64,000 nucleotides of DNA from Lytechinus pictus (taxonomy: Eukaryota), in NCBI RefSeq assembly GCF_037042905.1, contig NC_087245.1, positions 18,168,001-18,232,000 on the forward strand, read 5' to 3'. The notes beneath the pieces are model-generated. The model searched no databases, had not been told where the DNA came from, and worked only from the letters and a program-made list of their open reading frames with translations. Of the stretch, positions 17,161 through 64,000 are shown one piece after another. Positions within the stretch are counted from its first letter, which is position 1. Each line of letters starts with the position of its first letter. Made by a program: the position numbers and the translations under genes.

Positions 17161-18813
17161 GTTATATCCTTTTCAAGTGACTGACTCATTTTCAGGAAAA
17201 TGGCTTTCGTTTTCAGATTTATTAGCTCGATCCGAGTTTCTTTAGCTTATATATTATATCTAAAGCAGAACAATTCAAAATTCACTATTTTCAGAATTCT
17301 TTCAGTCTGGAGTACCCATTTAACTTTTAAATGTTCCACGAGCAAAATTTTAGATCACGTTGCACATTTGCAGGAATACTTCTATTTCGTATTAAAAAAT
17401 ACAAAAGGAAAAGGGCCTAGTAAATATTAAGGGGCATATATACAGGCCATGCTGATACGCATAATTCGATTTGATGGAATCATCGGTGATATGCTTCTTG
17501 ATAGTTCATAAGTTCATGAAATTTATTTCCACATTTAATACAAATATGTCAAAGGCACCATTACAGAGGAAAATGACATAACGTCAGAATACAAAAGAAT
17601 AAAAAGCAAAGTTAACAATATACCCCCAATACAATACAGAAAAAAAAATATATTATATGTCTAGAATGTCGGGGAGCAACAAAGGTCAAAGATCTATCGA
17701 GGTTGCTCCCATGTGGTTAAGAAAGATAGATATTAAAAAAAAATCATACATTTGAATCATTTTTGTTGGGTTTTTATTTGAAATTTCAGGAGATACTGCA
17801 CTGTACACATCCAGAGCCAAAAAAGGTAAAAATTAAAGAAATTTCCTTTTTGAAGATCGAGGGCCAGGCTGGTATGTACTTTCCGGTCAAATTTAAGCTA
17901 AATAAAGGAGGAATTTGGTAGAGTATGGTTCGGGAACGAAGTTCATGATTTTTCTTCCAGTGAACAATATGAATATAAATGACTATGAATACTTGAATAC
18001 TATTTAGTCAGTTTAGTGTGCAGTCCAATTGATGTCTTTTGTTTACTCTTGTGGATGATTGGTTCACTGAGTATTTGTACCATAGTAGCTACCATGATCT
18101 TCTGAAAATCTCAGTAATTGAAGTTTTGATCGGTAACTTCAATCGTGGGAGTGTATAATTGCCGTGATCGAGTTCTTCTTATTTCCAGTGAGTAAATTCA
18201 TTAATAAATCGCACTTTCTTTTTATTTTCACGTTGTGTGTAGTGAATATAAGCAACCCACATACCTGGTCTATTACAAAAGTCCATACACTAATGTCAAT
18301 CTCAGCGGTGAACACAGGGAATTTAATGACAAAATATGGAAGTTACTATTTTGCGTCTTTTTTTTATAGTCTGCTCTGTCACCTCTGAGTCTGACTGACT
18401 CGACTCTGTCTGACTCAGTTTGAGTCGTTTGCATCGATCCTAATGTCTTAATGACAATGTGAATGTTACACAATGGGTGATTTCAAGTACGGTGTTGAAA
18501 TCTGGTGTTGGTGTTGTGACAACACCATGCACCAGCCACAACACCGTACTTGAAATCAGGCTGGTGTTGGGTCTGGGATTGACCTCGGAAAATATGACGT
18601 ATTTCTGGCAGTTCGTGTTGAATGCTGCCTTGGTGTTGAATTAGCCTGGAGGCGTCTGGGGAGTGAAAGTACCGTAAGGATACTAGTATTCAACCCGTTT
18701 GGAGAGTTTCTTCAAATAAATAACAGAAATATGGAATTTACCTGAATTTCATACCTTGGCTTTGGCTTTGTTATTTCCATTTCCAGGGTAGGTTGTCGGT
18801 ATTTTTTTAAAGA

Positions 18814-20565: not shown

Positions 20566-23500
20566 GTAATGATGCTTGTACTTCTACATTTTCTGTATTT
20601 TCCTTGTGAACATATTCCGATAGCACATGATGAAAAATTTCCACAGACCAAATCGGACATTATTTGGCCCATGATGGCTCAAGCTCATGCAGCTTGAATG
20701 CCTATTTAGCCCTATTGAACGCCCTGTATAATAAATTTTTGGAACCTGGGTCTAGCCATTTCATAACGCTGTTCATATCTTAATAGAGCATTATGGTCCT
20801 CCCTTGGCAAATTGACACTGATTTCAATTGGGCTAAAGAAGGTATTCGTGTGGCAACATATCAGGGCCTACATGAACCGCTTTCCACCAAATTTGGACTG
20901 TTACTATTTTTCATCATGCTCTAATGAGATATGGTTTCCAAAATGCTGAAGTGCAAGAAATTTATTTTTATGAAATTATTGCTTGTACATGTACTCTAAT
21001 CTGAGCTATTGAAAAAAATAGACATACATGTAGGCTGTAATCTTGACAACTTCTTCTTAACCACAATTTTTGTCTCACCTGCATAGCAGAGTGAGACTAT
21101 AGGCGCCGCTTTTCCGACGGCGGCGGCGACGGCGGCGGCGGCGGCGGCGACGGCGACGGCGGCGTCAACACCAAATCTTAACCTGAGGTTAAGTTTTTGA
21201 AATGACAGCATAACTTAGAAAGTATATGGACCTAGTTCATGAAACTTGGCCATAAGGTTAATCAAGTATTACTAAACATCCTGCCTGAGTTTCATGTCAC
21301 ATGACCAAGGTCAAAGGTCATTTAGGGTCAATGAACTTAGACCATGTTGGGGGAATCAACATCAAAATCTTAACCTAAGGTTAAGTTTTTGAAATGTCAT
21401 CATAACTTAGAAAATATATGGACCTAGTTCATGAAACTTATACATAAGGTTAATCAAGTATCACTGAACATCCTGCATGAGTTTCACATCACATGACCGA
21501 GGTCAAAGGTCATTTAGGGTCAATGAACTTTGGCCGAATTGGGGGTATCTGTTGAATTACCATCATAACTTTGAAAGTTTATGGATCTGATTCATGAAAC
21601 TTGGACATAATAGTAATCAAGTATTACTGAACATCCTGTGCAAGTTTCAGGTCACATGATCAAGGTCAAAGGTCATTTAGGGTCAATGAACTTTGGCCAA
21701 ATTGGGGTATTTGTTGAATTACAGCCATAAATTTGAAAGTGTGTTGGTCTAGTTCATAAAACTTGTACATAATAGTAATCAAGTATCACTGAACATCCTG
21801 TGCGAGTTTCAGGTCACATGATCAAGGTCAAAGGTCATGTAAGGTCAAAGAACTTTGGCCACGTTGGGGGTATTTGTTGAATTGCCATCATATCTCTATA
21901 AGTGTATTGGTCTAGTTCATAAAACGTGGAAATAAGAGTAACCAAGTATCACTGAACATCTTGTGCGAGTTATAGTAGTTTTCAAAATCAGCACTGCTGC
22001 TATATTGAATCGCGTGATGCAGGTGAGACGGCCAGAGGCATTCCACTTGTTATTCTTTTTATTTTATCAGGACATTTTGATGGCGTGTATAGGGTAGAAA
22101 GCTTTTAGAAGCATATCAGTTATCTATTAAAGTTTAAGGTCTCTAGATATTATGGCTGGAAATAATTTTGCGACTAAACTTGACTCTTCTTTGATTCCTT
22201 TATTCATCAGGACCTTTCGGCGGCGTGTGCAGGGTAGAATGCGTAAGCATATTGGTGATCTTAGCCTGATGGCTGGTATGACTCAAGATGCATTTGTTCA
22301 TTATCAGACGGCCTATGAGATCTTAAAAGGAGCCAATGATTGGCTGTGGATGGCAGGTATGTAGCTTTTTGGAAACCTATCAGAGAATGACGCTGTCTTA
22401 AGAAATACAGGAATCTGGGAATCTTTAGGAAGATGTAATATTGCATATCTTGAGAAATGGATTGCAGTTTTGTAGCACTACCATTAGAATAAAAAGTACA
22501 GAATGCCTTAGAATTACCTCTCATTATATTATCCTATATTAAAACTGTATAAATGATATTTAAACATAGGATTTGTTTTAAAATCATGTATAATATTAAA
22601 GGAATTTGAATAATGAAGGATGCCGATCTTTTCAGAGATGAAATTTTGTCATACTTGTTTCGATGTTTTTTGTACATGAAGTGTGTATTCCCTTAGACAC
22701 TCAAGTAACTAAAACCTTACTTTGGAAATGTTACAGCTTGCCTTGAAGGCATGTGTGCAGCTTCTGTAATCCAGCTATATCCTACAGAACCCCCAAACAA
22801 AGGGATTCCTAGAAATGCTTCCTTCAGTGGGGAATCTTTATTAAAGCCTCCGGAAGAGAAACTTCATCGTACAGGTGAGTTGTTATTGTTTTTTTTTTAG
22901 GCTTCGTGATCATATCCTATGCTTCCCTGAAAAAATGATCTTGTGATTTTTTAGCCCATTGCTTACATGTACTGGTACTATTAATAAAACGAAATTGTCC
23001 CTGTGTAAATCAACACAGAATTCAGTAGTCAAATGGTAGACTGGTGTAAAAAAAATAACATGATATTACTATACATGTATCGTACATTTAAGTTTGTTGT
23101 CATCCAAATTTTTTGTTAATTTGATTATTGCATATATATTCCCCATGGATTGTCAATTAACAGGGAGCTATGAGACCATGAATGGAGTAGATGAAAAGTA
23201 CGAAGATGAAGACCTACCAAAGAACTGCCTTCCTCCTGATGATATCATTGAGAAATACAGGGATGCTATTGTGCATTACGCAAAGGTGAGTTTTACCACA
23301 ATAAGGCAATGACGTCAGTAAATTTTAGTTTTCTGTCAGTGTGTAGGATACCATGTCTTGATGCGCGTAGCCAGGGGGGGCGGTGGGGGCGGTCGCCCCC
23401 CCAAAACGTCTCCAAAAAGAAAAAAAGAAGGGAAAAAAGAGAGGAGAAAAGGAAAAGCGAAGGGAGGAAAGGGAAGAAAGGTAGCTTTGAGAGTTTTTCT

Positions 23501-26500: not shown

Positions 26501-29500
26501 AAGTACTAATTTGTATTGTTGCACAGACAAACATGAAAAGTTACTCTTTGCATTGAAAAAAAAATAATGGAAACATTCAGATATGTGTAAATGGTTGACA
26601 ACTGGGTGAATTAAATTCTGAAAGTGACCAAAATTATATTTGAATTCCGTTTGTATGGACACTATGTGCTTGTCTAGTAGTGTGTCATATATTATAATCA
26701 AAGCAAATTATATATTCCCCATATATTATTGAAACATAAGTGCAGAAACAGTAAGCACTCATTGTCCATCATTCTATTTTGTCACCTCTAAAAAATAATA
26801 CATGTAGTCGGAGCAAATGGCCTTTATTTACAGTATAGTTACATGTATATGTTGTTTAATTTTTCGTCTGAATGATAGTGAAGATTTTACGAAAGACGTC
26901 TGTTACCTTTAAAAATCATAGTTGTAACAATTGACCTTAAATCATCAATAATATGTTCTTCATTTATTTTATAGTTAAACATTGTTTTTCACCCATTGAA
27001 TGAAATTGGACATTATAAGTGCATATTATATTCTCATTCAATTCCTATAATATTCAATGTAATTCAGGAGCAAGGGGAAATGCTCACAAATAAGGTACAT
27101 GTACTTAGTATTTTAGATTAGATAGCACGATTTGTGGCGCATGGTGTTATTTGTATGCATGATTTTGTTATAAATTTATAAGATCCTTGTATGTGTCCAG
27201 TATGTGACAATATAAGGATGTTTTTATTTTCTGAAAAGCAGTCAAAGCAAATATCATTTTCAGATTCTATGGATATATTTGTGGTTTATGCTGATGTTCA
27301 GGTTCTTAAAATCAATTAAATATTTTTTGGATAAGTTGTTGATAGTAGCAGAGGACACTAGTCATAACTTTTCATTAATTGCAATGAATTGTGCTCTGAA
27401 TTCTTGTGTTTTTACTTTTTGATATTACATATTGATTGCTGTTGTACAGACCTTCATTAGTTATTGGTTGTCTTTTCTTCTCTTTACACATTTTCATCAA
27501 TTTGATATTTCTAGTGTGTTTGAGTAAAGTTTTATTTTTTCACAGTTTTCTTAAATTCAGTTTTCGTTTGGCGTTTTTTAATTTTCCTCCTTATAAAATA
27601 ATGTTTTAAGTTTTTGCATGATGTGTAATATTTATTTATTTATATAGCTGTAGATGTAGATATTCCAATTGATGTATGTGCATTTTCTACCATGTGAAGT
27701 CACAATGAGAGGAATAGCTATTTCATGCAACAAATTTTTCCATTTTACTTTTTTCTTAGATTTTAATTTTTAGTAGTACTAGTAGCTATTACTTTAATAT
27801 TATATGTACATGCACGAGTTGAGTTGAGCACTTAGTTTGCATTTAAATTGCAACATTACATTTTATCTTATGCAATCGAAAATTGCTTCTTTTGAAGAGA
27901 TTAAGAAAACTGTAAACAGATTTTTGAAATGTAACAGGAAAAAGAAGAAAGACTAACATGACATTGAAGTAAAATCTTCCTTAGTAATCCTATTTTATGT
28001 GAAAAAAAACAATTGGTATGGTATGATGTGAAAGACTAACATGACATTGAAGTAAAATCTTCCTTAGTAATCCTATTTTATGTGAAAAAAAACAATTGGT
28101 ATGGTATGATGTATGTATGATGTACAATAAAGTATTTATAATGATCAAAGAGTTCTATTACTTTCAATTACAGAGCATTATGTTGAGTTTTAATTTTTTT
28201 TCAATTTTAATTCTTAATTATGATAGTACTAGGCCTAAACATATAATTGGTTTAGTTAGAATTTACTCTTACAGGAAAGCTTTTCAGGATTTTTTCATAA
28301 ATTCCCATTTTTTCTTCATGTATGCTTTTTAGCCTTTACATGTAATAGAGTCTCTACATGATGTCTTTACATGTAGTATTACAGACTTGAAATCTATAAA
28401 ACATTTCCTCTCATGGGTAAAGCTACAACTGTAACTACAAAGCTCTACTAATTCTAGGAAGAATTCTGAATTCTTTCATCAGAAAACAATGGATGCTGCA
28501 GACTTTCTTCAGAATGTAATCTACATCAACCTCAATCTCCCGGAGCACGAGAAGGTTCAGCGTTACAGTGCCCTCTCCAGGTTGTTCTCAAAGATTGGCT
28601 TTCATCGGAAGGCTGCGTTCTTCAAGCGGGTAGCTGCAATGCAATGTGTTAGTCCCACCAATCCAAATTCCAGCTGGGCTATGGTTAGTCATTGTCTTAT
28701 ATCATGTGTGCAATCTAAATTCTGTCTTGAGATTGTAAAACAAAAAAGTCTTATCAAGTCATCATGCTCATCTAGACCTTTTAAAATGTGATCATTGAAC
28801 TTAACCATCCAATCATTCTGAGTACTGTTTTTATTTGCATCCCAGCACTTCTCAGAACTTCCCTCTTCCTACTGTTATCACTTATATACCGAGCATTGAA
28901 AAAATCTACCAATAAATAAGTCATTAGAATTTAAAACATAATGCCTTTCATGAATTAATACTTCTGTTAAATTCTTTAATGTTTATTCATAGACAGAAGA
29001 GGATATTAGATTGTTGCTGTGGGAGGTTTGAAATTTAATATGAAAAAAGGATAATGCTGTAAGCCTACTTTAATTTTGTTTAGGCTAGAATCTATACAAA
29101 TTAAATTAGAATGAAAATAAACAATTATTATATTACATCTTTCAACACTATAATTTCTTTTTATATCAGAAATTAGCAGGTCAATTTGATATTTGTTAAA
29201 ATGTCGAATACAAATTTGTGCATGTATGACAGAATATTGAAAAAAAACACATAATTTTTTGCCAGTTGTGTACACAGTGCACAATACCCGAAACTTGGCC
29301 CCCTTAAAAAGTTATTGCTTCATTACTTACTGTTACATACATGTACTGTTACTATTACATATCTCCATTTAAAGAAAATCAAGATGACTCTGAGTAGGGC
29401 AGTTTTTATTATCTTCACCTTTTGTAACTGCATGTTTTTGTTTAAAAGTGAGCAGAATTATGGTGAAGAATCATTTATTTTAATATTCTTTGAGACTTCT

Positions 29501-35500: not shown

Positions 35501-38500
35501 CATCACTGGAGTGCCAGTAAACATCAAAATCACAAAATAGAAGTAGAAATATAATAAAATAGTAAAAGAAATCATAAAAAAAAGTTCACATATCACTATA
35601 TCCAAAGGGAAAATTCCCCAAAATTATGTGGAGTAGTGGCTTCATTTGTTGAGATAGAAGAGGATTGAAAAAAACATTATTAATTTTATAGGAATATTAG
35701 TTCCGATGGACCATATTAAAACTGAATGCAGTAATGTGCCAAATTATTTGCTTTACTGATTGTCTCCTAATTCTGATGATTGTCATCCATTCTTTTGAAT
35801 GTATATTCACCATTGTAACTTATGATTTGGCTGAAAATTTTTTGTTGTTCCCTTAACTGCATTTGTTTTCCATTGCCATAAAATATGTGATACAATTTAC
35901 ATTCATTTATTTTTTGTCACCTTTATTATTCTCCATTTTCTCCTGTACAGCTGTGAATGTGAAGTTAGGATAACTAATTGCAGTAAAGATGTAGCTGTAG
36001 ATACACTGGATATAGTATTAGATTGTGATCTTGGTGAGTATAAGTCCAGAAAACTTACAGATGATGCAGACAGAAAAATTCTGCTAGAAATTACTTATGA
36101 TATTCAGTGTGCTATGAAGTGGATCTTTTGATAAATCTAAGAGGTATCATGGTTCACTGACATGGATTTTTGATGATCCAAAGAGAATCAATTACTAGTA
36201 CTCAGGATAAGTGATGATAATGTTAGATTTTAAACCTTTACATGCTGCTGATTTTAACTCTTCATAGAGATTGAGTTTTTTCTTAATTCTGTAAATGTTA
36301 AAAGTACAGATGTCATTGATAATTTATTTTTTTATTGTAATATCCAATGTAGTCTGTATTAAAATTAAGAAAAGCATGACTATTTGATACTACTGAAATC
36401 AATCTTCTGCTTTTATGTTTGTATGTTGTGCAGTTTATTTGAATATGTAAATAGTTTTATATCTCTTAAATCTTTACCTTTTAATTTAACTTGTATAGAT
36501 GATGTATTTACATGGAGTGAAGAGAATGTTCAAACGCAGCTTCCATTACAGCCAACCTGTCAACTCACCCTAACTCTGTATATCAAAGCAAAGGGCCCTT
36601 TCTGTGTGCAGTCGGGTAATACAAAACCAAGTAAGTTCCAATGAACCACATTAATCTTTGTACAATGTTTTCATACCATAAAAAATAACATTCCAGTCCT
36701 AATTCTCGCTGGACTTTTGTTTGCAAACTGTTGCAAAAGCTGACATCAGGTTGTAAAAATAAATCCCATGCATATGTAATTAATTATTTGAATTGTATAA
36801 TTTGAGATTGTTGTCCTTTCTTTCTAGTGAATGTTCCTCCAACTCCTACAGTGAACAGAACAGATAGGATACCTGGTCTATCCTCCCACCCATCAAGATC
36901 ACCTTCAACATCAATGATAGAACAGCAAGCATTGGCACCACATGAAATAGATCTTACCAGATTACAACAGGTAGAATTCATCCTTACCACCTCTGAAAGT
37001 GTATCTGCATGAAAGCTTTTATTACTTTTAGTAAATCGGTATGGATCATTTTCAAAGTCTGAATTCTATTTCAGACGAATATTTTTTTATAAAGGGAAAG
37101 TTTCTGTCTTAGTTTCATACATTAACAGTATGGACATGCTATCTTACTCCATTATCCAGAAGAATCTCTGAAGAAAGATTAGAAAATAAAACCGACTGAC
37201 AATCTATTTTGATATGTATTGAGGCATAATTCAATGCAGTATATGTGTACTATAATATGCCCTATAAAATACTGGAAAAGAATATTCTTTAGCCATTCAT
37301 TCCAGGCACTTTTCCAAATATATACATGTATGTGTAGTCACATGTGCTTATTGAAATCCAAATTTAAAAGAAAAGAGTCTCTTACGACTAGATTATTATC
37401 ATTACCACTAACCTATGAAATACCTTGACTTCACTTGAGGCATCATATTTTCACTTTTTTGTTTGTTCGCAGATAATTGAAGGTACTCTGAACATGCAGT
37501 ACTCTGGTGGAGAAGGAGTAGATGAGTACTTTAGGCAGACTTCTTTAGTTCTTAACGTAGAGGTCCAACCATCTATAGTCTTTACAAAGTGGACCACCAT
37601 ACCAGCCACTGAGTAAGTCACCCGTCATCACTAATGAAGACCCCCCCCCCTGATTATGTAATTGATGATCATGTGGCTCTAGCAACAATCAATTGAAACA
37701 GCTATTGTAATAATAAGTTTTAGATACTACAATCACATAGACACCTTTTATTACACATCCTTTCCCCCCCCAAAAAAAAAAACCAAATAAAAAAACAAAC
37801 AAACTAACTGTTTAAAGATGTTGGAAATGGTTCTTTTCACAACCTTGAAAACAAAAATGATTTGTATGATGCATTTTTATTCCTGAATTGTGATACTGTA
37901 ACTTTCTACATGCTCTCTCAACAACCTCTTTTTCTATCTCTATCTCACTCATTCTCTCAACCATTCTCTGACCGCCCATCTCAGCATTTTTTTGGGGTAT
38001 TATTTGTCAATTTCTGTTTTTGATTTGCAGTCCGAGACATTTCCATTTGGTGCTTGATGCCATGAATGCTACTCTTCAAGATTTAAAAGTGCAATATGGA
38101 GAGGAGAACTGTGAGGTAGCATTAGAGAGCCAGAAGACAAAGAGGTAACTTTATTCATTTTTGTCCTTTGTAAGACACCTTAATAAAAAAATTCTGTGCT
38201 GCGTCTTTTACCGGGAATCCAGCTCATCTGCCGCAGCGGCTTTCATTTTCCTCTATTGTCTTGTCTAATAGGAAATGGTGGAATTAGCAAGGAAAAGACA
38301 CCAAGGATTCCTGTAGAATTCCTGGTTTTAAGGTTCCTAAGATGAAAGCTAAAAGAATTTTGGTTAATGTTTCTCAATTATGATCATGATGAAAGGTGAG
38401 AGGTAGTAAATTCACTGTGAAACTTAAATGGTTTCATTGGTTTGTAGGATGGCAGTACGAGTGGATCGGTTTGAGCTGGATACTCAAGCCGTGAACGAGA

Positions 38501-41500
38501 GTTCTGAGTTCTCCTACGTGATGGAGGATCCACAGCTTCATATGTTTTCAGTACAGCTAGCAACCATGGTGGACATCAGGTGGCAATGTATATCCTTTTG
38601 AACAAATGCAATTCATTTTTGAGCGTTTATAGTTATTGCTTTTTTTCCTTGATTGCATCCCCCTAAAAAATGTGTCGACCGACCCTAATTTTCATTGTTT
38701 TGCTTACTTCTTTTCTTGATTGCATCCCCCTAAAAAAATGTGTCGACCGACCCTAATTTTAATTGTTTTGCCTACTTCTTTTCTTGATTGCATCCCCCTA
38801 AAAAATGTGTCGACCGACCCTAATTTTCATTGTTTTGCCTACTTCTTTTCTTGATTGCATCCCCCTAAAAAATGTGTCGACCGACCCTAATTTTCATTGT
38901 TTTGCCTACTTCTTTTCTTGATTGCATCCCCCTAAAAAATGTGTCGACCGACCCTAATTTTCATTGTTTTGCCTACTTCTTTTCTTGATTGCATCCCCCT
39001 AAAAAATGTGTCGACCGACCCTAATTTTAATTGTTTTGCCTACTTCTTTTCTTAATTGCATCCCCCTAAAAAAATGTGTCGACCGACCCTAATTTTCATT
39101 GTTTTGCCTACTCCTTTTCTTGATAGCATCCCCCTAAAAAATGTGTCGACCGACCCTAATTTTCATTGTTTTGCCTACTTTTTTTTTCTTGTTTACTGAT
39201 GAATGGCGCAGTAGAATATCACCTATGACATGGGAAGGTACATGTAGGGGGCAAGATCTATTGACCCATTTTTTTTAACCTCCATTACAGCAAACAATTT
39301 TTTTTTTTAGGCCTGAATGTCCCCCTTCTCTTTGATTTACTTTTGTGACTTTTCAGATCCAATCATCTCTTTGACTAAAGTTGTTGCTTTTTCCGAGTTT
39401 GTTTCTGAGTTTCATTGCACCATGTCTGAGTTAGCCTTTGTGAACTTAGAATCATGCATGTAATCTATCAGATCAAATAATAACTGATGAAGTCAAGTGT
39501 TCCCTGCAAAAGTCTGCTTGAAATTGACATACAAATTTCTTGGGACCACAAGAATCTATTCGGCAAAAGAGAATTTGAATTATTGAAGCCTGACTTATGC
39601 AATATTAATAAATATTTTTTAATATTTGTTTATGTCCTTGCCATAAGGTATTTTTTAATCTACATTCACCTTGAATATATGGGAAGGAGCAGATGCTGCT
39701 ATTTCATATTGGCCTTTAATTTTAGATGTAATCTTAGCTCAAATAATTATCCATGGAGTTCTAAATGTTATTGTTATAACTTTGATGACTGCTTTTTACA
39801 AAGTATTCTCCTTGACAATCTTGCCTCACCCCATCAATGGCAAACATGGGGACGCATCTGTGGAGGGTCTGAGGTTATCTCAAGAGGAATTAGACAACAT
39901 TGTTCCGTTCCCTGTTTGGTGGGATGTTCAGATCAACGGCGAGGCTCACATGGTAGGAGAACCGGTCACTGCCAACCAGGGGGAACCTCTAAACATAGCT
40001 GTCTCGGTCACAAGTAAAACAGGTAAGTGCCATTCCATTTAAAGAAATATTCAAGAAACTTTGTTCTGTCATGGACTGTTCGAAATATTTACCATACCCT
40101 TGCTCATTCAGTGAATGAAACTGCTGTCCAACCCATGTGAGAAATTCCTTTACCCTCAGAACATTTCAAGTGCGATTTCAAGAGTTTTTTAACGGAGGAA
40201 TTTTTAAAAACGAAACACCACTTCAGAAATTCAGTATTTTTCTTGAATAAATTATTGAATTATGCCTGCATTTTGCTTTCCAGCGGAGTTATGATGAAGC
40301 CCATCAGAAGCAGAACTAGAAAATTGAAGTGCTTACGTGGAATTTTGACAACCCATGAGAGTCCTTTTGAAATCCATTATCCTGCAAGTGATATGTACAT
40401 TTTGTGGTAGTTTTATACTACTCTGGTGCAAACACTACCATCCATGTTTTTTTTAATTAGTATTAAATGTGAAGGTGTGTGGGAATATTTTGAATTTTGT
40501 TGTACAACTTTTTGGGTATTTCTGAATACCCTAAATAAACCTTTCCCCCATTTTGTTCAAATGTTTATTTGTAGATGTATGTGTTGGCCCAGTTGAGCTG
40601 AGTACATTTGTCTACTTGGATCATGAGAATGAAAAGAAGGAGATAAATCCAGCTGATAAAGTAACTTGTTTAGGAACTACCTCAAGAGTCATTAAACAGG
40701 TAAGAATCGTAGAATGATTTTTAAGGTGTCTAACAGATCGTGCAGGATCCATTCAGTGACAATGCTATTTTAACAGCAGATTTTATCCTAAATAAATGCA
40801 ATAATGATTTTTTTTTTTAATGACCCTTAGCTTGTTTTTTCCTTCCAATTAGTATTCTGCATACACTTTCGTGTCCAGATTCAGGCATGCCAGGCACACT
40901 TTGCAGAATGGCAATGTCTGCATTACGGTTCTTAGAAATTAGCAAATTGTAGATGGAATGATACCTTATTTGAGGAACAGTTACTTTTATGTTCATGTAT
41001 CATGGTTTGGACAGTATTACTCCTCATAAACAGGTCCTTCAGAGAGGATGTAAAGCTCTTAGTTATTTAATTGCATATTTTTGCAAGCATTCATTCTTTC
41101 CTAGCAGTGAAGTGAATTATACCACCAACCACAAAATCACCATCATGTTGTGTGATTAATGTAAATTATGCAACATACGGCATAGTTTTGGTGTATGGGT
41201 ATTGAAACAATAACATTGTCTGTGTTCAGGGATATTTCGATGCCATATATGTATACTTATCCAGAAATACCGGTTAGTGATGTCCACCTCACATTGTAGA
41301 AAGAATTTTATTACAAACAATTACTATGTATAAATGTACTGCATGTAATTCATACATTGCCTGATATGGTAAAGACATCATCTAGGTCTTCATGGCCGAA
41401 AGTGTATGAAGCTGAGGTGAAGAATGTCTTTCAATGGGACAGCGAGTTAGCTGGCTCCACTCAATAATTGAAATATTTCTGTTGAGTTCTTTTCACCTTT

Positions 41501-47700: not shown

Positions 47701-47765
47701 TAATTCCCCTCAGAAAAATAAGTCTTAAAGAAAGCTTCTGCGCTCAGTTGGCAGGATAACGCTGT

Positions 47766-48120
47766 GGAAGCGCTGTGGTGTAGCGGTTCTGACTCTCGCC
47801 TTGTAATCAGAGGGTCGTGTGGTCGAATCCCACCATGGTCTAGCGTCCTTTGGCAAGGCGTCTATCCACAATTTGCCACTCTCCACCCAGGTGTTAAATG
47901 GGTACCCGGTAGGATGCGAAAGCCTATGTAGTATGCCTAGCAATTGAGTCTTGGAACTCTTGTTGGAATGCTCCCCAGGGAGTGGAGAAGGTGCATATTG
48001 TATGCGGGCATGCAAGGATCCGATGACCGGGGTAATAATATATCTGTAAAGCGCTTAGAGACATCGTTCCGATGTGTTAAGCGCTATATAAATGCGGAAT
48101 ATTATTATTATTATTATTAT
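47766..48120 (+). mobile_element. tRNA-derived SINE, full length
   Basis: A box TGGTGTAGCGG, B box GGTCGAATCC, CCACCCAGGTG..AAATGGGTACC core, (TAT)n tail. Confidence 0.85.
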
Positions 48121-48459: not shown

Positions 48460-49715
48460 GGAGGGGATTATCATTCATTTACCAGATTTATGAAGAGTAT
48501 GCCTTTGCTATCTTAATTAGCATGCATTAAGATTTTGATTTAAAACAGGAACTGAACAGCGGAATAGTTACAATTAAAGGACAAGTCCACCCCAACAAAA
48601 ATTGATTTGAATAAAAAGAGAAAAATCCAACAAGCATAACACTGAAAATTTCATCAAAATCGGATGTAAAATAAGAAAGTTATAACATTTTCAAATTTCG
48701 CTTAATTTCACAAAACAGTTATATGCACATCCTGGTTGGTATGCAAATGAGGAGACTGATGACGTCATCCACTCACTATTTCTTTTGTATTTCATTATAT
48801 GAAATATGAAATATTCTAATTGTTTTTTTCCTCATTGTCAAGTGAAACAGTGATTAATTCCTCCCTGAACATGTGGAATTAGCATTGTTTAATACTATAT
48901 GATTCAGTCAAGTCGGTCCCTATGGTCAAATCTGTAAAAAATGAAAAATTGTATAATTTAAACAATAAAAAACAAAAGAAATAGTGAGTGATGGACATCA
49001 TCGACTGACTCATTTGCATGTCACTGATTTGTGCATATCACTGTTTTGTGAAAAATAAGCGTAACTTTAAAATGCCATAACTTTCCTAACTTACATCCGA
49101 TTTTGTTGAAATTTTCAGTGTTATGTTTGTTGGATTTTTCTCTATTTATTCAAATCAACATTTTGCTGGGGTGGACTTGACCTTTAAAAAAATTACAGAC
49201 AACAAGAGGATTACCATTCAATTATCAGATTTATGGGGAATATGCATTTCCTATCTTAACTAACATGCATTGAGAGTTTGGTTTTAAATAGGAACTGAAC
49301 AGCGGAATAGTTACAATTAAAAAAAATTACAGACAACAAGAGGATTACCATTCAATTATCGAATTTATGGGGAATATGCATTTCCTATCTTAACTAACAT
49401 GCATTGAGAGTTTGGTTTTAAATAGGAACTGAACAGCGGAATAGTTACAATTAAAAAAAATTACAGACAACAAGAGGATTACCATTCAATTATCGAATTT
49501 ATGGGGAATATGCATTTCCTATCTTAACTAGCATGCATTGAGAGTTCGGTTTTAAAAAGAACTGAACAGCGGAATAGTTACAATTAAAAACAAATTACAG
49601 ACAAGAGGATTAGCATTCAATTATCAGATTTATGGGGAATATGCATTTCCTATCTTAACTAGCATGCATTGAGAGTTTGGTTTTAAATAGGAACTGAACA
49701 GCTGAATAGTTAAAA
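48460..49715. repeat. About 134-bp tandem repeat, 4-5 copies, first unit interrupted by a MITE
   Basis: GAACTGAACAGC at 48549, 49292, 49426, 49559, 49691. Confidence 0.9.
48578..49183. mobile_element. Fold-back TTAA-target MITE (same family as 30994..31597)
   Basis: TTAA-AGGACAAGTCCACCCC ... GGGGTGGACTTGACCT-TTAA. Confidence 0.88.
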
Positions 49716-50372
49716 AAAGTTTATACACACTTTTACCAAATCTTTGCAATATTCTCTCATAAAAGTATGCCTATTAAAATGTTTTTTCTTCCAATTACCA
49801 AAATGGCTATTTGTGGATTAAATTCACAATCCAGATTAGATTAATTACTAGTATCTTCTTACAATTTATAATTGAACACAAATGAAAAATTCTAGTTTTA
49901 TTTATTTGCTTTCAATGATAGTGCAACATCAAACATAATTCTTATTACTTTAATTTTGTAGAAAATGGGGAACAACTAAAAAAATAGCCAAACAAAGAAA
50001 GGTAAAATTTTCCATGAAAAATATGATTCTTTTGGTACAACCATAATGCAACCATAAACCCCAATTCATTTTAAGTTTAAAGCCTTTCTGTTGGCCGCTC
50101 TTTGAATTATCTTCTTGGTTTCAATCCAATTTCCTAAAATGTATATCCTTACCACATTTATGTGAAAGCTTTTTATAATTTGATTATATGACATCTTCAG
50201 TATTCATTTCCTTGACTCAATCTTTCAAGCATTTTCTCCTCCTTTTTCATTTCCATTTCCACTTCCATTCTGTTGTAAATCATCAGAATATTTAAAATTG
50301 TAATTATACAAACTTAAAAAATACCTGATTAGTAAGATTGAATGCGATGTTTCTAAATTTTCATAGTTGTAT

Positions 50373-50750
50373 GGAAATGCTGTGGTGTAGCGGTTTTGTC
50401 TCTTGCCTTGCAATCAGAGGGTTATGTGTTTGAATCCCACCGTGGCCTAGCATCCTTTGACAAGGCATCAATCCACAATTTGCCGCTCTCCACCCAGGTC
50501 CAGAAGTGCTAAATGGGTACCTGGGAGGCTGCAAAAGCCTATGTAGTATGCCTAGCAATTGAGTCTTGGAACTCTTGCTGGAATGATCCCCAGGGAATGG
50601 AGAAAGTGCATACATTGTGTGCGGGCATGCCAGGATCCGATAACTTGGAGAATAATAAGTAGGCCTACATGTATGATGTTAAGTGCGTAGAAACAAAATT
50701 TGTTAAGCACTATATAAATGTTACAATTATTATTTTATTTATTATTATGT
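50373..50750 (+). mobile_element. tRNA-derived SINE (copy of 47766 family)
   Basis: Colinear similarity incl. A/B boxes and AT-rich tail. Confidence 0.82.
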
Positions 50751-57436: not shown

Positions 57437-58301
57437 ATTGCAAAATAGATCTGAAATAGATCCAACTCCTTCTGAATAAAAAAGTGGATTTTCTTTGCCA
57501 TTTTTATTTTTGTTTTAATGGGAGTTTTATTTTTTCTTTGGTATCATCAGAGTGACTAAAAATCTATACATTGAGACCAAGAAAAAAACCAAATCGATGA
57601 AAAATGTCTAACCCTTTTGCAATTGAGCTCTTCATATTACCTATAAAAAAAACTCTGAAACAACAGACTAATGACAAAATCATTGAGCGTAATAACATTG
57701 ATTGACATATCTATTTGTCGAAGCATTAGCCGATGTTGTAACGAAAACTACGATCAATATGTCATTGACTGTCTTTGTGTATACTATATAGAGGTAAATA
57801 TATCTAATACTCCGTTCAATCTTTTGCATCCATTTTTATTCAATGATAATGAGCTCGGGTGGCGCCACCCAGTGATTAGATTGACTTAGTAAAAACGTTC
57901 GTCTATAAAATAGCCACTATGGTGCTGTTAAAAATGGCAGGGTCATGTATGGTAATGTATATTAATTTTGTTTGACCGACGTAACATTTTTCTATAAATA
58001 TTAACCTTGAACAACGCTGAGCCTTTGTGGTATGCATGATGAGGTGTACAATACGATTCATGAAATGTCAGACGGCAGATTGAAATGAAGGACCGTTTAA
58101 TTACTTTTCACTGAATGTCCGGTTGCATCCACTATTACGTGTGTTTTTTGGTTGATGCTTTTCAATCTGCGAAAGTTAACGTTAAAAACAATCGGCCTAT
58201 ACTATGATATACATGTGAAGTACACAGCAGGGAGTCATAGAAAAATAGCAGACTTGCCAATTTGTTGTAGGTTGCATTCAGATTCCACCCTTTCCTTACA
58301 G

Positions 58302-58998
58302 CTTTTGTACTGTAAGCATGGAAACATTTGACATTATAACACTGATAGGAGCTATTCTGTCGACTGTCTGTTGCATTGGAACAGTCACAACGTATTCCAG
58401 TTTTGGGGATTTGCGGAATATCTCCGGGTTATGTCTTATCAACGTTTCGCTGGCACTGTTAACTCTAGCTATCATTTTCACTGCCACCTATTTTCTTGTG
58501 ATCAGTGGAACATCATGTGTTACCATTGCAATCCTCCAACAGATTTGCTGGCTCGGCTCCTTCACTTGGATGTCACTTCAGGCCGTCCACATGGTCCGCA
58601 CGTTTGTCCTCACCAATTGGCAAATGCCTTTGGGACATCCGCAGAACCGGCAGCAATGGATCAAGATCAGCATGGCACACGCCCTCATGGGCTGGGGCCT
58701 TCCAATGATCTATTCAGTGGTTCTTTTGTATTTTCATTTATGTCGCGATTGCTTGCCGGGTGGAGTCGAGTTTCGGTTAGGAAAAGACTCGAATTCTACC
58801 ATAAAATACTGTTGGCCGGGAAGCACATATCTTGGAAACCACCTCACAATCGATCCGATGCTCGTTCTTCTTGCTTTCAACATTGTGGCCCTCCTCATTG
58901 TCATGATAGCAATTATCAAAAAACGAATGATGACGAGAAAGGTAGCCGGACGGGATCTTAAAAAAGAGATTGCTGTAAATCTTCTTATCTTGGCTAAG
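58302..58998 (+). CDS. Family-B / adhesion (secretin-like, 7tm_2) GPCR exon encoding TM1-TM5 and the start of TM6
   Basis: Five hydrophobic helices with class-B signatures (LRNISGLCLINVSLAL, C..IA...WL.SFTWM, GWGLP, CW, FNIV); CAG acceptor at 58299-58301, AAG|GTAAAT donor at 58999. Confidence 0.85.
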
Positions 58999-59683
58999 GT
59001 AAATCAGTAGCTGAATCGAAAGGATAATATCCCCTTTCAAAGTAAAGTGTATTGACTAGAACTCCCCTATTCTATGAAATATCATTTTTATAACATGAAA
59101 TTACCTAATTTGTATTACCTCCACTTTATTATCTGGATTAACAGTCACTAGGTGCTTCTACTTTATCATAAATCCAGCATTTGTCCTCAATTTGTGGGAA
59201 GTCACAACTTATAAACCATTGTCATTAATGGAAAAGCTTCAACTAATCATTTTTCATAATTTTTTTGCAATAATATTGAGTTAGCCTTTTAAGTTAGGTA
59301 ATTGATAAAGAAATAATGAAAGGCAAGAATATGTAAAATATAGCATCATAGGAATAGGGTGAGGTCCTGAAAACAAATGCCAACCAGACAAAGATGAAAT
59401 GGGATGACTGCTCGAAAGAGGTATTGAGGTGAGGAAAGGCGTTCCGGTGCGGCAATTAGACTATCTGCCACGGTGTCACTTTTTACTCTTCCTTTCCCAC
59501 TCAAGACGTAAGCTTATTGTTGAGGACTAGATGAACAGGACATATCTTATACGATATAATATCTGAAACGTTTGCTCCTGTAGCATTACATGTATTCATA
59601 ACTCCATTCAACATGCTCAATACGATCACAGCGATGATATGATTTTTTTTTCATTTTGCTTCTTTCGCCTTTCGATTTAATAG

Positions 59684-63319: not shown

Positions 63320-64000
63320 GGCACCAATCAAGAATAATCAGCGCTACCTAAATCTAAATCGGCGCCGGACAAGAATAATCACCGCCATTTGGTTATAAAT
63401 CGGCGCCAAGAAAAATCGACGCTACCTGTGTTCTTAACCGGCGCCAATCAATGATAATCAGCGCCACCTAAATCTAAATCAGGGCCGGACAAGAATAATC
63501 AGCTCCACCTAAATCTAAATCGGGGCCGGGCAAGAATAATCGGCGCCATCTGGTTATAAATCGGCGCTGGTAAAGAAAAATCGGCGCTGCCTGAGTTCTT
63601 AACCGGCGCCGATCAAGGATAATCAGCGCCATTCTAAATCGGGGCTGGTCAAGAATAATCAGCGCCATCTGATTATAAATCGGCGCTGCCTGAGTCTTAA
63701 CCGGCGCCGATCAAGAATAATCAGCTCCACCTAAATCTAAATCGGCGCCGGACAAGAATAATCGGCGCCTCCTGGTTCTAAATCGGCGCCAGTCGATCAT
63801 TTGCCGCTGCCTGAATCTTACGTGACGTCTGGACGTCGGTAAAAATAATCAGCACTACTTGTTCTAAATCGGCGCCGGTCAAGACAAATCGGCGCTGCCT
63901 TTGTCTTAACCGGCGCCACCTAAATTTAAATCGGCGCCGGTCAAGAATAATCAGCGTCCCCTGGTTCCAATAATTAGGCGCCGGTAGAATAATGAAGAAG
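63320..64000. repeat. Degenerate GC-rich tandem repeat/satellite running off the window
   Basis: Recurring AATCGGCGCC, CAAGAATAATC and CCTAAATCTAAATC modules. Confidence 0.85.

Follow-up and report, generated by a model that had tools for sequence, protein, structure and literature searches.

TRAPPC9 is linked to human intellectual disability. The human gene is listed as a minor-intron gene in the tables of PMC6717393, with an intron of 24,177 nt (chr8:139885970-139910146; supplement files 1 and 8 of that paper and Supplementary Data 4 of PMC4667643). The PMC6717393 supplement gives its 5′ splice site as ATC/ATATCCTTT, where the slash marks the exon end, and a branch point sequence (BPS) that includes TCCTTGAC. 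In the data of PMC4667643, two RNU4ATAC patients showed 21.2% and 13.3% retention of this intron, against 0, NA and 0 for three controls, an average of 17% versus 0% (two patients, two controls with data). The numbers are small, but as reported they are direct evidence that the human orthologue depends on the minor spliceosome. In mouse and rat, Trappc9 (Nibp) has an intron recorded as U12-type with CT-AC ends (U12DB; PMC2831892, section 17), and the same paper ascribes consensus termini to the orthologous vertebrate introns. The zebrafish TRAPPC9 intron may be listed in the supplement of PMC9501576. The sequence-only reading of the urchin locus had proposed checking whether the vertebrate intron is U12-type, and the human, mouse and rat entries in these sources say that it is.

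The corresponding machinery is published for one sea urchin. The tables of PMC11347168 (S4 and S7) report 274 minor introns in Strongylocentrotus purpuratus, and the same source reports high-confidence genes for U11 (4), U12 (3), U4atac (3) and U6atac (13). Minor intron density in non-tunicate deuterostomes is described in PMC10639083 as vertebrate-like. Intron 18 of TRAPPC9 in Lytechinus pictus is the urchin copy of the catalogued minor intron and is already modelled by RefSeq; it is not a discovery. The most probable reading, at roughly 96%, is that animal TRAPPC9 had this U12-type AT-AC intron ancestrally, and that L. pictus still carries it and removes it with the minor spliceosome.

Intron 18 of the Lytechinus pictus TRAPPC9 gene

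The window (the whole 64-kb stretch of DNA that was analysed) holds TRAPPC9 of L. pictus. An exact spliced walk through 21 coding exons reproduced RefSeq XP_054752936.2 letter for letter, and a query with exon 19 returned one protein at 100% identity, L. pictus TRAPPC9. By its PF08626 match (E 4.4e-47; 160.7 bits against a cut-off of 24.7) and its full-length likeness to annotated TRAPPC9 proteins, among them that of guinea pig (43% identity across the length), the gene is a member of the TRAPPC9/Trs120 family. Nineteen of the 20 introns have GT-AG termini; intron 18 is the remaining one and has AT-AC. Two boundaries for this intron fit XP_054752936.2, and a recognised terminal pair occurs only at 38590-39829. 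The features are as follows.

19970-41917, + strand: TRAPPC9 coding region; 21 exons, 1,156 aa, 19 GT-AG introns and one AT-AC intron
38448-38589, + strand: coding exon 18, from the spliced walk
38590-39829, + strand: intron 18, U12-type AT-AC, phase 0, 1,240 nt, from the fit to XP_054752936.2
38590-38598, + strand: U12-type 5′ splice site ATATCCTTT, the same letters as PMC6717393 lists for the intronic portion of the minor 5′ splice site in human TRAPPC9
38599-38601, + strand: in-frame TGA, three codons into intron 18; the open frame 38428-38601 ends DIRWQCISF
38639-39185, + strand: tandem array in intron 18, 67 bp × 8.1, 96% matches, 44% of the intron length
39809-39816, + strand: U12-type branch point core TCCTTGAC, an 8-mer also present in the human TRAPPC9 BPS
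39828-39829, + strand: terminal AC, 3′ splice site, from the spliced walk and motif scan
39830-40022, + strand: coding exon 19, from the spliced walk; 100% identical to L. pictus TRAPPC9

U12-type introns are a class defined by extended donor and branch sequences, as set out in PMC3584512. The donor stretch ATATCCTTTT begins at 38590, directly after the last codon of exon 18 (TGT, 38587-38589). Its ATATCCTTT agrees with the extended donor consensus RTATCCTTT, and TCCTTGAC agrees with the branch point consensus TCCTTRAC. The presumed branch A is 39815. Twelve nucleotides lie between this A and the AC, 13 lie between the end of the motif and the exon, and counting on from the A through the final C of the intron, that C included, gives 14, the figure reported earlier. 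The optimum branch-to-3′ splice site distance is given as 11-13 nt in a passage of PMC3584512 that states no counting convention. The stretch from the branch motif to exon 19 contains no AG; the closest one upstream ends at 39803, 5′ of the motif. The short branch-to-acceptor distance, the absence of a clear polypyrimidine tract and the AT-AC termini at true exon ends (U12-type introns have AT-AC or GT-AG) are all features of the U12-type class. The AT-AC U12-type intron proposed by the sequence-only reading at 38590-39829 is thus borne out in its signals and placement, as well as in its frame and colinearity with orthologues: the phase 0 join gives an exact match to XP_054752936.2 and a gapless alignment with orthologues.

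Counts of the motifs in the window were rejected as evidence, as they are at chance rates: ATATCCTTT occurs twice (1.68 expected), TCCTTRAC twice (3.60 expected) and TCCTTRAC-N8-16-AC once (1.80 expected). The evidential weight lies in the position of the motifs at exon ends fixed by homology. For donor, branch core and terminal dinucleotide to fall together at one of 20 introns, a dinucleotide model gives P of about 4e-8. A second donor-like and branch-like pair, separated by 66 nt, at 50143-50216 and an isolated perfect donor motif at 17164-17172 were set aside as apparently due to chance, since they lie outside the TRAPPC9 coding region and no + strand open frame of at least 95 aa ends there; the branch-like motif at 50209, in addition, has no AC 8-16 nt downstream. 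A role for these motifs in a UTR or non-coding transcript is conceivable.

Several other features were seen. The 67-bp array starts 49 nt past the U12 donor, and its high match level suggests recent expansion. Further tandem arrays lie at 21165-21971 (163/192-bp units), 49186-49712 (134-bp) and 63328-63790 (41-bp). An open frame of 253 codons at 58249-59010 (+) matches Pfam 7tm_2, the transmembrane region of secretin/adhesion-type GPCRs (E 7.8e-11). Two related short frames, 47725-48054 and 50361-50678 (-), have a peptide in common and seem to be copies of a single interspersed repeat; the frame at 50361-50678 (-) had no Pfam match. A 27-nt alternative micro-exon (27068-27094, +; nine residues, AG/GT ends) is present in isoform X1 and absent from X2 in the RefSeq entries of both Lytechinus species, and the TRAPPC9 isoform pairs of Anneissia and Apostichopus differ by 9 and 8 residues, respectively. 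The exon numbers 18 and 19 in the sequence-only reading are correct for the isoform of 21 coding exons, and become 19 and 20 once the micro-exon is counted. Solved structures were uninformative on the junction; only yeast Trs120 was matched, far upstream of it.

The exon 18-19 junction and its rival readings

The AT-AC join was compared with every in-frame, stop-free GT-AG, GC-AG or AT-AC join that could be made from donors at 38500-38599 and acceptors at 39650-39919 (n = 67). Joins were scored against a profile of 16 non-Lytechinus orthologues, picked as apparently spliced through and mostly predictions themselves. The AT-AC join came top of the 67, at 76.3 bits and with no length change, and the best GT-AG join reached 62.9 bits. 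Alignment across the junction is gapless for Diadema, Apostichopus, Anneissia and mammals. The urchin W-Q-C/P aligns with W-x-I/P in mammals, and mammals and birds read W-x-I/PSLKRxGEASVEG at this point. The human exon-final codon, ATC, fits the Ile that precedes PSLKR in mammalian proteins, and from this one exon codon and the non-human mammalian proteins we infer that the urchin and human introns occupy the same alignment column in the same phase. The urchin intron thereby shares codon position and phase with the vertebrate orthologous group, as read from proteins rather than vertebrate DNA. All five Lytechinus RefSeq models (predictions from L. pictus and L. variegatus, forming one cluster) carry the AT-AC join, and the junction is therefore already in public annotation.

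During assembly of the minor spliceosome, U4atac/U6atac.U5 joins after U11/U12. At this locus, U11 would bind the donor at 38590 and U12 would pair with the branch sequence, leaving A39815 bulged out; once U4atac/U6atac.U5 has joined, the AC at a short fixed distance downstream would serve as acceptor without a polypyrimidine tract, and exon 18 would be joined in frame to exon 19. Donor recognition by U11, pairing of U12 that excludes the branch A, and an acceptor set by distance with no polypyrimidine tract are all described in PMC3584512. Were the intron retained, the protein would end I-S-F-stop, the stop lying three codons in, and would lack the 171 C-terminal residues of the spliced form; transcripts of this kind would encode a truncated protein and probably decay. 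Splicing of intron 18 in L. pictus is predicted from the DNA, and the spliceosome that would act on it and the likely fate of retained transcripts are drawn from the human orthologue and from what is already established. We consider it very likely that L. pictus keeps a minor spliceosome, for which S. purpuratus is the published precedent. The 64-kb window gave no Rfam hits to minor snRNA genes, and none were expected.

A weak U2-type GT-AG intron could in principle take the place of the AT-AC intron, the U12-like motifs then being relics or chance. Its likeliest form, 38588-39803, starts at the GT that the sequence-only reading gave as its refuting example. It is in frame and stop-free, adds eight residues and, at 62.9 bits, scores highest of the GT-AG joins; ahead of exon 19 the reading frame is open from 39659 onward. 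However, it falls 13 bits under the AT-AC join, its eight residues are absent from the 16 profile orthologues and none of the five Lytechinus models uses it. On matrices trained on the 19 GT-AG introns of TRAPPC9 itself, a small training set, the 38588 donor scores 1.4 (leave-one-out range of the 19 real sites, 2.0 to 13.2) and the 39803 acceptor -3.5 (-2.7 to 13.8). The pair is possible in principle yet poorly supported by these comparisons, and we regard it as very improbable. Still less probable is that the AT-AC ends are correct and the intron is taken out by the major spliceosome. A divergent AT-AC subclass that needs the major snRNAs does exist (PMC3584512), but here the extended donor and the branch are letter for letter those of both the U12 consensus and the human intron, the intron 18 sites score -10.0 and -4.8 on the U2 matrices of the gene, and the human orthologue responds to U4atac mutation in the data of PMC4667643.

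The intron might also act as a regulated switch in the urchin, with slow splicing or competition from cryptic GT-AG sites setting TRAPPC9 output through the early stop. This would be an addition to the U12-type reading, not an alternative. Minor introns in general have been suggested to be rate-limiting (PMC3584512), and retention does bring an in-frame stop after three codons. Against this, retention was 0 in the human controls with data (n = 2; PMC4667643), and a large survey attributes much of minor intron evolution to neutral processes (PMC10639083). We consider such a switch unlikely, though less so than either of the other two readings.

Read-through protein models and the age of the intron

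Of 195 stored proteins, 102 matched a profile built on the part upstream of the junction. The conserved Trp was located in 80 of these, and the other 22 were set aside. Among the 80 models, 13 have I-S-F or I-S-L directly after the junction column, as in the in-frame translation of ATATCCTTN; V-S-F/L was seen in none of the 80, and the background for I-S-F/L is 0.0008 per position. These 13 rows are not independent, and come from nine species, which comprise a sea cucumber, two fish, the goat, a tick, spiders and a mite.

Deuterostomes with read-through models: Apostichopus japonicus, Anabas testudineus, Sinocyclocheilus rhinocerous, Capra hircus
Arthropods with read-through models: Ixodes scapularis, Argiope bruennichi, Trichonephila clavipes, Araneus ventricosus, Leptotrombidium deliense

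The goat and the two fish models thus read I-S-F/L from the junction column, as does the L. deliense model (P0054, I-S-F). A Gordionus model among the rows set aside (P0091) has the same I-S-F at the junction. Apostichopus, I. scapularis and Gordionus each also have a RefSeq model that is colinear, as are five Logan proteins in the Ixodes cluster. The evidence for read-through consists of protein models, and I-S-F can arise from other codons. Spliced models are silent on the presence and type of an intron, so that losses and conversions to GT-AG are invisible to this approach. Two further models differ at the junction. RefSeq P0193 of Argiope bruennichi reads I-Y-Y-I after it, with about four extra residues and a poor fit, and isoform X2 of Ixodes (P0174) has one residue missing there, perhaps through use of another acceptor 3 nt downstream.

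The expectation that predictors limited to GT-AG would mis-model this gene was right elsewhere, in that 13 of the 80 models continue into intron sequence, and wrong here, where all five Lytechinus models are correct. At this point, many TRAPPC9/brunelleschi proteins in the databases break off or include residues that stem from the intron, and they should not be taken for short isoforms that occur naturally.

The distribution of the tail suggests that an AT-type donor was present at this codon in the bilaterian ancestor and predates the protostome-deuterostome split. Taken further, the protein models make it probable that the AT-AC intron is at least as old as the bilaterian ancestor and is AT-type in vertebrates, echinoderms, spiders, ticks, Leptotrombidium and Gordionus, with a minor spliceosome in Nematomorpha and with the I-S-F/L tail as a marker readable from protein alone. 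If this is true, the DNA of those species should have ATATCCTT at the same phase and TCCTTRAC near the far end of the intron, and an I-S-F/L tail at a conserved column could be used to find mis-annotated phase-0 AT-AC introns in public databases. The I-S-F of Gordionus and Leptotrombidium hints that a nematomorph and a chigger mite, respectively, have an AT-AC minor intron; Leptotrombidium belongs to a group described as minor-intron poor. Neither name appears in the main text of PMC10639083, and Nematomorpha were not mentioned among the literature matches listed.

Comparison with described minor introns

In the literature searched, the L. pictus intron was not named, although the species tables of PMC10639083 on FigShare may list Lytechinus. 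The species was not mentioned among the literature matches listed, and searches for TRAPPC9 together with the minor spliceosome, and for gene-prediction misannotation of AT-AC U12 introns, returned no literature. The supplements of PMC10639083, PMC2831892, PMC3291851 and PMC11347168 have no TRAPPC9 or Lytechinus rows. The L. pictus embryo offers a system for following an ancient minor intron of a disease-linked gene.

S. purpuratus is likewise a sea urchin with minor introns and minor snRNAs (as tabulated in PMC11347168) but belongs to another genus. Rodent Trappc9 (Nibp) has a U12-type intron in the same gene, with CT-AC ends in the U12DB entries where the urchin has AT-AC. Also among the closest counterparts is the human TRAPPC9 minor intron, which shares with the urchin copy an AT start, the donor ATATCCTTT and the branch core TCCTTGAC; this likeness covers the 5′ AT, donor and branch, the human 3′ terminal dinucleotide lying outside the rows compared. 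The two differ in length (24,177 nt in human, 1,240 nt in the urchin), and the urchin copy contains the 67-bp tandem array and is preceded by Cys rather than Ile.
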